DNA of 43,756 nucleotides from positions 1 to 43,756 of the forward strand of contig SCTT01000232.1 of assembly GCA_004322435.1 (NCBI GenBank), read 5' to 3'. Position numbers and translations under genes: made by a program. Below the pieces are notes generated by a model. It searched no databases, was not told the origin of the DNA, and saw only the letters and a program-made list of their open reading frames with translations. The first letter of the stretch is position 1. Every line of letters starts with the position of its first letter. The DNA is from a bacterium. GTDB taxonomy: Bacteria; Elusimicrobiota; Elusimicrobia; UBA1565. Shown here in pieces: positions 32,234 to 33,480 of the stretch.

Positions 32234-33133
32234 ATGGCATCCGTCCGAGAGATCCGCCGCAAGATAAAGTCGGTGAAGTCGACCCAGCAGATCACGAAGG
32301 CGATGAAGATGGTCGCCGCGGCGCGCATGCGGCGCGCCCAGTCGGCCATCCTCTCCTCGCGGCCCTTCGCCCAGCGCATCGACGCGGCGGTCTCCGACCT
32401 GGCCCGGCTCGAGGTCCGCGCCGACCTGGACGCCGGCCGCGCGGTCCAGATCCACCACTACTTCGACCGGCGCACGACCGGCGCGGCGGGCCTCTTGCTC
32501 GTCACGGCCGACAAGGGCCTGTGCGGCGGCTTCAACACGAACATCCTCCGCTCGACCCTCCTCTGGCTCAAGGCCCGCCGGGCCGAGGGCAAGAAGGTCG
32601 TCGTCGTGGCCGTCGGGCGCAAGGGCCGCGACCTCTTGGCGCGCATCAAAGACGAGGGCATCGAGAAGGCCGCCGAGCTCGTCGGCATCTTCCCGAAGGT
32701 CACCTTCGCGCACGCCGAGCTGGCCTTAAAGCCCCTGCTCGAGCGCTTCGACTCCGGCGAGCTCGAGTCCTTGGACGTCATCACGACCGAGTTCGTGTCG
32801 GTGGTCAGCCAGAAGGTCTCCGAGAAGCGCCTCCTGCCCATCCCGGAGCCGAAGCCGGCCGACGCCGCCCCGTCCGAGTTCAAGTTCGAGCCGGGCCGCG
32901 AGAAGCTCCTCGACGCCCTGCTGCCGCGCCACGCGAAGGCCCAGGCCTACCGGGCCCTCCTCGAGTCGCAGGCCGCGGAGCTCGCCGCGCGCATGAACGC
33001 GATGGACTCGGCCTCGAAGAACGCCGCCGAGCTCATCAGCGGCCTCACCCTTTGGATGAACCGCACCCGCCAGGCCATCATCACGCGCGAGCTCATGGAG
33101 ATCGTGAGCGGCGCGGAGGCCCTGGCCCAATGA
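32234..33133 (+). CDS. atpG: F1 ATP synthase subunit gamma
   Basis: The N-terminus is [36 protein letters not shown]. The C-terminus is [18 protein letters not shown]. Confidence 0.93.
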
Positions 33134-33480
33134 CCGCTTCGATGGAGACCAAGATGAACGACAAACGCAGGAACCCCCGCTTCCCGGTGGGGATCACGAT
33201 GGACATCCACACCAAGGGCCAGGGCGTGACCAAGTGCCGCGGCACCATCACGGACCTGTCCTTGACGGGCATGACCTTCAAGACCAACGCCGAGCTCGAG
33301 AAAGGGCAGTCGCTCTTCCTCAACCTCAACATCCCGCTGCAGATCCGCGGCGAGGTGCGCAGCATCCGCGAGGACGTCTCGGGGCTGCGCAGCTACGGCA
33401 TCCACTTCCACCACATCGGAAACTTCGGGCCCGCGCACAAGCGGCCCGTCAACTTCATCGCCGCGAGGTTCCAGAAATGA
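33130..33480 (+). CDS. PilZ-domain protein (116 aa) embedded between atpG and atpD
   Basis: ATGA overlaps occur at both ends (33130-33133 with atpG, 33477-33480 with atpD). Both c-di-GMP binding signatures are intact: RRNPR (RxxxR) and DLSLTG (DxSxxG). Confidence 0.75.

Follow-up and report, generated by a model that had tools for sequence, protein, structure and literature searches.

Does the F-type ATP synthase of some bacteria answer to a second messenger, or does its operon simply carry the gene of a receptor that works elsewhere? The question is raised by a 43,756 nt stretch of DNA from a bacterium of the Elusimicrobiota (GTDB lineage Elusimicrobia, UBA1565; GenBank assembly GCA_004322435.1, contig SCTT01000232.1; the whole stretch is called the window), where a gene for a small PilZ-domain protein, a predicted receptor of cyclic di-guanosine monophosphate (c-di-GMP), is embedded in the F1Fo ATP synthase (atp) operon. 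A reading of the window made without database searches (the sequence-only reading) had placed this open reading frame (ORF) of 116 aa exactly between the gamma and beta subunit genes, and the profile matches of the flanking genes confirmed the position. The comparison of related genomes showed that the PilZ gene is a fixed internal member of the F1Fo operon in a clade of probably free-living Elusimicrobia, and the finding is real, conserved and, apparently, undescribed.

The PilZ gene between atpG and atpD

The three genes concerned are listed below.

32234–33133 (+): atpG, F1 gamma subunit, 299 aa (PF00231, 301 bits; TIGR01146, 299.5 bits)
33130–33480 (+): PilZ gene, stand-alone domain, 116 aa (Pfam PF07238, motifs, predicted barrel)
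33477–34928 (+): atpD, F1 beta subunit, 483 aa (TIGR01039, 804.5 bits)

The start codon of the PilZ gene (ATG, 33130–33132) shares bases with the stop codon of atpG (TGA, 33131–33133), and its own stop codon (TGA, 33478–33480) with the start codon of atpD (ATG, 33477–33479), so the 4-nt overlaps of the sequence ATGA that had been claimed on both sides could be read at 33130–33133 and 33477–33480. GGAGG and GAGG sequences are located 10 nt 5′ of the PilZ start and 8 nt 5′ of the atpD start, respectively.

Conservation of the gene order

The sequence-only reading had proposed a survey of the atp operons of relatives, and this survey revealed that a PilZ ORF between atpG and atpD is conserved. 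We found 74 homologues of the PilZ protein (51–100% identity, 81–126 aa), each with a PF07238 match, and the named ones came from Elusimicrobia metagenome-assembled genomes (MAGs). Scanning one genome per GTDB species yielded 54 loci, 53 of which contained real matches; these 53 are labelled Elusimicrobia or Elusimicrobiota, except one “bacterium” and one Candidatus Endomicrobium trichonymphae. The PilZ gene stood immediately 5′ of atpD in 53/53 loci, while atpG was found immediately 5′ of the PilZ gene in all 52 loci whose contig extends that far. The same atpG-PilZ-atpD order was present in every further contig of the clade examined, and look-ups anchored on gamma instead of PilZ detected the PilZ gene at three of three sites, one of which belonged to a MAG labelled Proteobacteria. 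The best 120 gamma homologues all originated from the PilZ-bearing clade, and the Elusimicrobia atp operons compared were PilZ-bearing ones. It is probable that the clade represents those respiratory and free-living lineages of Elusimicrobia which have been described previously (bioRxiv 10.1101/765248).

The median gap over the 53 loci was 14 nt between the gamma and PilZ genes and 12 nt between the PilZ and beta genes, and ATGA overlaps occurred at 8/53 gamma-side and 18/53 beta-side junctions. Tight packing is general, but only in this genome and a few others do ATGA overlaps flank the PilZ gene on both sides. The genes located 3′ of atpC vary, with DUF4349-like and metallo-beta-lactamase genes in the window and cupin, rhodanese or S1-domain genes elsewhere, which indicates that the internal order of the operon was kept while synteny outside it decayed. 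The dN/dS values of the closest genome pairs were 0.14–0.28 for PilZ, 0.09–0.27 for gamma and 0.03–0.17 for beta; PilZ and gamma are thus constrained by selection to a similar degree. These values are restricted to the closest pairs, as distant pairs proved unreliable: the G+C content at third codon positions (GC3) is about 96%, which compresses dS and inflates omega.

Family, motifs and predicted fold of the PilZ protein

The PilZ hidden Markov model search that the sequence-only reading had recommended was carried out, and PF07238 matched residues 11–96 with 52.9 bits (cutoff 22.5, E = 5e-14), without a second Pfam domain in the 116-aa protein; the predicted fold was also that of PilZ. Both c-di-GMP-binding motifs proved to be intact as had been stated, the RxxxR motif being RRNPR at residues 13–17 and the [D/N]xSxxG motif DLSLTG at residues 42–47, but they are spaced by 25 residues and not by approximately 30. 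Residues R13, R17, D42, S44 and G47 were invariant in an alignment of 29 sequences. RxxxR was found in 54/54 and D/NxSxxG in 51/54 of the locus-derived ORFs, the other three having ExSxxG. These ExSxxG carriers (EVSASG) are three related genomes (L045, L048 and L049).

A search of the PDB sequences with the family profile gave only marginal matches (best E = 0.067), which made a fold comparison necessary. The AlphaFold2 (AF2) model built from 29 family members (predicted local distance difference test score, pLDDT, 72.4) is a six-stranded barrel with strands at residues 18–28, 36–43, 47–52, 61–66, 70–81 and 87–97, and its confidence is low for the last 20 residues. The best 31 Foldseek matches in the PDB were PilZ domains throughout (probability 0.91–1.00, template modelling score about 0.4–0.53), mostly in c-di-GMP-bound form, and included BcsA, YcgR (5y6f), PP4397, VCA0042, PA0012, MotI (5vx6), Alg44 and MrkH. 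No homology was detected to the known F1 inhibitors (the C-terminal domain of epsilon, zeta, IF1 and AtpTheta), as the family and fold matches pointed to PilZ only. The family, whose members are 81–126 aa long, has a long (111–126 aa) and a short (98–106 aa) form. The long form ends in FIAA[KR]FQK, which is FIAARFQK in the window protein, while the short form, seen in one subclade, lacks this tail. We interpret the tail as what is left of the C-terminal helix usual in PilZ domains, since similar tails occur in remote PilZ relatives. By every feature checked, namely the profile, both motifs and the six-stranded barrel, the protein is a member of the PilZ family. The product of 33130–33480 is a canonical stand-alone PilZ-domain protein under purifying selection and is predicted to bind c-di-GMP.

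The same data bear on the trivial explanation of the locus. The window has a G+C content of 71% and is crowded with spurious long ORFs; as these are common in such DNA, an open frame alone is little proof of a gene. Even so, the Pfam match, the 74 homologues and the dN/dS values, well below one in close pairs, identify the PilZ ORF as a genuine gene, and the predicted PilZ fold agrees with this. An origin of the ORF by chance in G+C-rich DNA, or by an error of annotation, has a negligible probability, and we count this explanation as already refuted by the above results.

Distant relatives and tandem copies

A search of 1.84 billion representative proteins with the family profile resulted in 326 matches at E ≤ 1e-3, 47 at E ≤ 1e-10 and six at E ≤ 1e-30. 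The best matches were all stand-alone proteins of about 100–120 aa. The longer matches inspected were a tandem PilZ protein (P0239) and two proteins (P0242 and P0248) that look chimeric, with parts of unrelated proteins. Two loci of remote PilZ relatives (L142 and L143) were on short contigs without atp neighbours. The third one, L144, is located on a contig of 52% G+C, and its PilZ protein (P0243) matched the profile with E = 1e-16. The gene order here is atpA-atpG-PilZ-PilZ-atpD with overlapping junctions, and nothing is inserted between atpA and atpG, where the window has two further genes (orf151 and an epimerase gene, see below). The gamma and beta subunits of L144 are 39% and 75% identical to those of the window, respectively, and both PilZ copies (1990–2654) retained both motifs. 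Locus L027, which lacks orf151, contains three tandem PilZ genes at the gamma–beta site (5585–6729). The PilZ gene has been multiplied at this site in two separate lineages, three-fold in L027 and two-fold in L144. These arrangements show that the gamma-PilZ-beta link is independent of the other inserts and that duplicates stay at the site; the link is older or wider than the insertion of orf151 and the epimerase gene.

The divergent REC-GGDDF gene

The gene next to the start of the atp operon is the following.

25350–26342 (−): response-regulator receiver plus GGDEF-type domain protein, 330 aa (PF00072, 103 bits; PF00990, 55.3 bits)

It is divergent from the operon, with about 60 nt to the first operon gene, so that both would start from one promoter region. 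The same divergent gene was found in 13/13 loci with a readable upstream side, namely the window, L058–L061, one ENA contig and all seven informative metagenome contigs (L062–L068), the latter having been found by searching with the regulator itself. Two of these contigs (L064 and L067) span the entire operon, PilZ included. Relatives of the regulator with 47% or lower identity had no atp neighbours, so the adjacency to the atp operon belongs to this clade.

The PF00990 match is well above the cutoff (23.8 bits) and covers only profile positions 5–91 of 161, as the second half of the GGDEF-type domain is interrupted by inserted residues. The active-site motif is HIGGDDF instead of GG[D/E]EF, and it was invariant in five orthologues, in which the acidic pocket of the receiver (REC) domain with the phospho-acceptor Asp, as well as the Lys, were intact. 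The RxxD inhibitory site was absent from the five aligned orthologues. The best PDB match of the protein was PleD (E = 7e-51), and according to the alignment the equivalents of PleD D327, K332, N335 and D344 are conserved, including the N and D that contact the base. The Asp by which G-specific enzymes can be told from Hypr enzymes is kept as well. GGDDF (H[IVE]GGDDF) was found in 76/80 metagenome relatives (L062–L141) down to 31% identity, while one had AGDDF and three were not resolved. Judging from this distribution, the HxGGDDF proteins form a distinct, widespread subfamily in which the Asp is not a sign of decay, and its strict conservation suggests an active enzyme with distinct chemistry or product rather than a degenerate domain. 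Activity of a GGDDF domain has been demonstrated once, for Geobacter GSU1937, which makes both cyclic GMP-AMP (cGAMP) and c-di-GMP (PMC8835794). Tandem copies of REC-GGDDF relatives were seen in L105, L109 and L110.

The genes located 3′ of the regulator in the window (20998–25329, −) encode an amine oxidase-like flavoprotein, a class III aminotransferase and an aldehyde dehydrogenase, all co-directional. This cluster resembles an amine or gamma-aminobutyric acid (GABA) catabolic set, and it is not kept beside the regulator elsewhere, where thiolase and 4HBT thioesterase genes stand instead.

The ATP synthase operon and its other genes

Besides the three genes listed above, the operon consists of the following.

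26402–26650 (+): AtpI/AtpZ-like small membrane protein (ATPase_gene1), first operon gene (PF09527, 55.6 bits)
26993–27802 (+): atpB, subunit a (ORF; orthologues match PF00119)
27895–28188 (+): atpE, subunit c (ORF; orthologues match PF00137)
28269–28775 (+): atpF, subunit b (ORF; orthologues match PF00430)
28775–29314 (+): atpH, delta subunit (ORF; orthologues match PF00213)
29332–30846 (+): atpA, alpha subunit (ORF; orthologues match PF00006)
30846–31301 (+): orf151, predicted exported all-alpha protein, between atpA and atpG (signal-peptide-like N-terminus)
31298–32230 (+): HldD-like NAD-dependent sugar epimerase of the short-chain dehydrogenase/reductase (SDR) type, 310 aa, between orf151 and atpG (PF01370, 161.6 bits)
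34930–35382 (+): atpC, epsilon subunit, 150 aa (PF02823 and PF00401)

The AtpI/AtpZ-like gene was also found in L059, L060 and L061, and a 126-codon hydrophobic ORF sits between this gene and atpB. The atpB-atpE-atpF-atpH-atpA order was repeated in more than 50 loci according to tblastn searches. The sequence of the c subunit is, in our reading, that of a proton-type carboxylate site. Large clade-specific docking insertions were sought in gamma and epsilon, and only two small additions were detected. Compared with the gamma chain of PDB 2qe7, the gamma subunit has an insertion of about nine residues past its N-terminal helix (residues 57–66, 32402–32431), which is possibly a clade-specific surface feature. 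The epsilon subunit kept both domains, including the inhibitory C-terminal helical one, and has a C-terminal tail of about 15 residues compared with solved epsilon chains.

The product of orf151 had no Pfam or NCBIfam match, and those of its 27 homologues that were named all came from Elusimicrobia. The AF2 model showed an all-alpha fold (pLDDT 85.9), for which no match better than E = 3 was found in the PDB. With few exceptions, the main-clade loci have orf151 at this position, and its pairwise dN/dS (median 0.69) is above those of the neighbouring genes. The epimerase passed the model of ADP-glyceromanno-heptose 6-epimerase (TIGR02197) borderline, with 283.1 bits against a cutoff of 274.6, and failed the enterobacterial model NF008360 (170 against 452); its GxxGxxG and YxxxK motifs are present. 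The epimerase gene overlaps orf151 by GTGA, ends 3 nt before atpG, and its position is conserved across the main clade. Both proteins may be lineage-specific accessory subunits, too; a precedent for an SDR accessory subunit is NDUFA9 of complex I.

Neither a plus-strand terminator-like site nor a sigma-70-like promoter was found in the region 25300–36900, where all terminator-like sites were on the minus strand and were no more common than in shuffled sequence. We infer that the PilZ gene is co-transcribed with the gamma and beta genes. The Rfam scan of the window matched no family, c-di-GMP riboswitches included.

Other features of the window

A giant ORF (57–11189, +), at least 3,710 codons long and containing 14 fibronectin type III repeats, probably encodes a cell-surface protein; its listed start is 56 nt from the left end of the window, and the start of the gene may lie upstream of the window. 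Six consecutive ORFs of 193–517 aa with strong coding-type GC3 bias follow at 12599–19164 (+). Five of them lacked a Pfam match, and the sixth (14986–15567) has a Metal_resist (heavy-metal resistance) domain. At 40024–42092, the gene of a YchJ/SEC-C motif protein (−) adjoins that of a T2SSE-type secretion/pilus ATPase (+, 517 aa).

Possible function of the PilZ protein

Since the PilZ protein is encoded between the genes of a rotor subunit and a catalytic subunit, F1 seems to be its most economical target. We tentatively favour the reading that the protein is a cyclic-dinucleotide-dependent adaptor that binds and modulates F1, and regard the chance of this as slightly below even. According to the proposed mechanism, a histidine kinase would phosphorylate the REC-GGDDF protein, which would then make c-di-GMP or a related cyclic dinucleotide near the site where ATP synthase is produced. 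The nucleotide-bound PilZ protein would dock on F1, with the gamma/epsilon rotor or the C-terminal region of beta as the most plausible site, and would alter the activity of the enzyme. Most likely it would halt rotation, so that no ATP is wasted by hydrolysis; whether it is a brake or an activator, and where it makes contact, is guesswork. The REC-GGDDF neighbour and the presence of the gamma-PilZ-beta order in a distant lineage without the other inserts strengthen this reading. In its boldest form, which we consider conceivable and rather doubtful, the REC-GGDDF cyclase would form, together with between one and three PilZ adaptors, a two-component-controlled cyclic-dinucleotide module built into the F1Fo operon and directly gating F-type rotation.

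Several observations weigh against F1 as the target. The eight canonical subunits are all present and, apart from the small insertions, ordinary, and with the C-terminal domain of epsilon in place there is no vacant regulatory role. The operon of the main clade also holds the HldD-like epimerase and the exported orf151, neither of which has an obvious role in ATP synthase, so membership in the operon is no proof of shared function. A mirror-tree analysis of PilZ versus gamma, beta, epsilon, epimerase and orf151 in 19 genomes, with the other subunits controlled for, resulted in partial correlations of 0.12–0.28 with the F1 subunits and 0.34–0.46 with the epimerase and orf151, thus the co-variation is not specific to F1 subunits. 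No fusion of PilZ with an ATP synthase subunit was found among the profile matches examined (326 matches, 1.84 billion representatives). Finally, the GGDDF motif departs from GG[DE]EF, and another GGDDF protein, PA3258, showed no cyclase activity, according to a citation in PMC8835794.

Some of these points favour the explanation that the protein is a real PilZ receptor which uses the atp operon only as a strong and steady expression platform, while its target lies elsewhere, e.g., in type IV pili or motility, secretion or exopolysaccharide synthesis. An operon that tolerates the epimerase and orf151 could tolerate such a passenger as well; neither the mirror-tree signal nor Rosetta-stone fusions tie PilZ to F1, and the known stand-alone PilZ proteins have diverse targets (bioRxiv 10.1101/814665). 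Even a conceivable alternative partner is encoded in the window, the T2SSE-type ATPase 7 kb downstream, but in the five other loci whose genes had been called, its gene was not seen 3′ of atpC. The position of the PilZ gene also speaks against a passenger, as it was never met elsewhere in the clade and always stands between gamma and beta, never at the end of the operon. Furthermore, the tandem duplicates remain at the gamma–beta site, and the arrangement recurs in a distant lineage (L144) without the other passengers. Considering both sides, we judge a passenger role, the main rival of the F1 reading, to be on balance unlikely, even if it has to be reckoned with.

The target could also be a nearer one, if the PilZ protein regulates the HldD-like epimerase and/or orf151 and thereby the synthesis of lipopolysaccharide (LPS) or envelope sugars, in the way in which PilZ domains govern cellulose and alginate synthases. 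PilZ-mediated c-di-GMP control of polysaccharides is common, BcsA and Alg44 are among the top structural matches, orf151, epimerase and PilZ genes are all near gamma in the main clade, and the residual co-variation of PilZ, though weak, is highest with orf151 and the epimerase. This explanation is nevertheless improbable, because L144 has two PilZ genes at the gamma–beta site with neither orf151 nor epimerase, L027 has three PilZ genes and no orf151, and atpG separates PilZ from the epimerase gene in every locus. We see hardly more than a slight chance, marginally smaller still, for a nucleotide-independent role, in which the protein would be a clade-specific extra F1 subunit or assembly chaperone with vestigial c-di-GMP binding. 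The location between gamma and beta and the translational coupling in some genomes do suggest roughly stoichiometric synthesis, and there are stand-alone PilZ proteins that no longer bind c-di-GMP and work purely via protein contacts (bioRxiv 10.1101/814665). On the other hand, the retention of RxxxR in all and D/NxSxxG in nearly all of the locus-derived ORFs (with a conservative E in the other three) at 44–100% identity would be unexpected for a vestigial site, and a cyclase-like gene is conserved beside the operon.

If the PilZ protein acts on F1, a second messenger of lifestyle would reach directly into energy conversion; were the rotation of F1 gated by the module described above, this would be the first case of a second messenger switching the universal ATP-making enzyme, with a rotary-motor brake that arose in parallel to YcgR. 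If F1 is not the target, the locus would be a clear case of strict operon embedding without shared function; an LPS-type epimerase is also encoded inside. The parts are small soluble proteins and the well-behaved F1, which makes the proposal testable in vitro without culturing these uncultivated bacteria.

Comparison with known systems

The regulation of F-type ATP synthases relies on built-in elements, such as epsilon and the redox loops of gamma, or on small inhibitor proteins. The C-terminal domain of epsilon, the alphaproteobacterial zeta, the mitochondrial IF1 and the cyanobacterial AtpTheta are all small, block rotation and stop wasteful ATP hydrolysis, and some of the inhibitor proteins are encoded in or near atp operons. 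To our knowledge, none of them has a PilZ fold, and we know of none under cyclic-dinucleotide control. The present case also differs from them in that a canonical epsilon with its C-terminal helices is encoded beside the PilZ protein.

Among the c-di-GMP effectors, the window protein is most similar in build to the stand-alone PilZ receptors such as MapZ/PA4608, PA0012/TssZ and DgrA, which consist of a single domain of about 100–120 aa with RxxxR in the flexible N-terminus and DxSxxG on the barrel, and which are nucleotide-dependent adaptors working via protein contacts (bioRxiv 10.1101/814665). It differs from them by its location, as no case among the F1 genes of an atp operon was found in the literature searched, by its marginal sequence similarity to solved PilZ proteins, and by the lack of the usual C-terminal helix region in one Elusimicrobia subclade (the 98–106 aa forms). 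The REC-GGDDF neighbour resembles the REC-GGDEF cyclases PleD and WspR in having a REC domain with phospho-acceptor Asp and Lys followed by a domain of GGDEF fold, and differs from them by the invariable GGDDF motif, the missing RxxD site and the insertion in the second half of its second domain.

That c-di-GMP binds to the export ATPases FliI and HrcN, which had been mentioned in the sequence-only reading, is documented in the literature: the nucleotide binds FliI, HrcN and ClpB2 directly at a subunit interface (PMC4591828). Control of F1 alpha and beta homologues by c-di-GMP has a precedent here, but there the nucleotide sits on the ATPase itself without a PilZ adaptor, and F1-ATPase served in that work as a modelling template only. 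A 2025 review of c-di-GMP effectors lists no link to ATP synthase, and, in agreement with the earlier impression that such a system was undescribed, no description of a PilZ gene in an atp operon or of c-di-GMP control of F1Fo was found in the literature searched, the coverage of which was incomplete.

The best functional analogy for a rotor brake is offered by YcgR and MotI, PilZ-based c-di-GMP effectors acting on an ion-driven rotary motor. The window protein has no N-terminal YcgR_N/PilZN domain, thus it does not share their two-domain architecture, and neither MotA nor FliG is related to the proposed target, F1Fo. The label “YcgR” given by JGI to some of the homologues was rejected because of the absent N-terminal domain, and it is valid at the domain level only. 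A PilZ protein acting on F1 would have two sets of functional analogues, YcgR and MotI for the flagellar motor, and epsilon, zeta, IF1 and AtpTheta for F1. The PilZ protein of the atp operon is a new member of a known domain family, and the proposed control would extend to a target that has not been linked to cyclic dinucleotides before.

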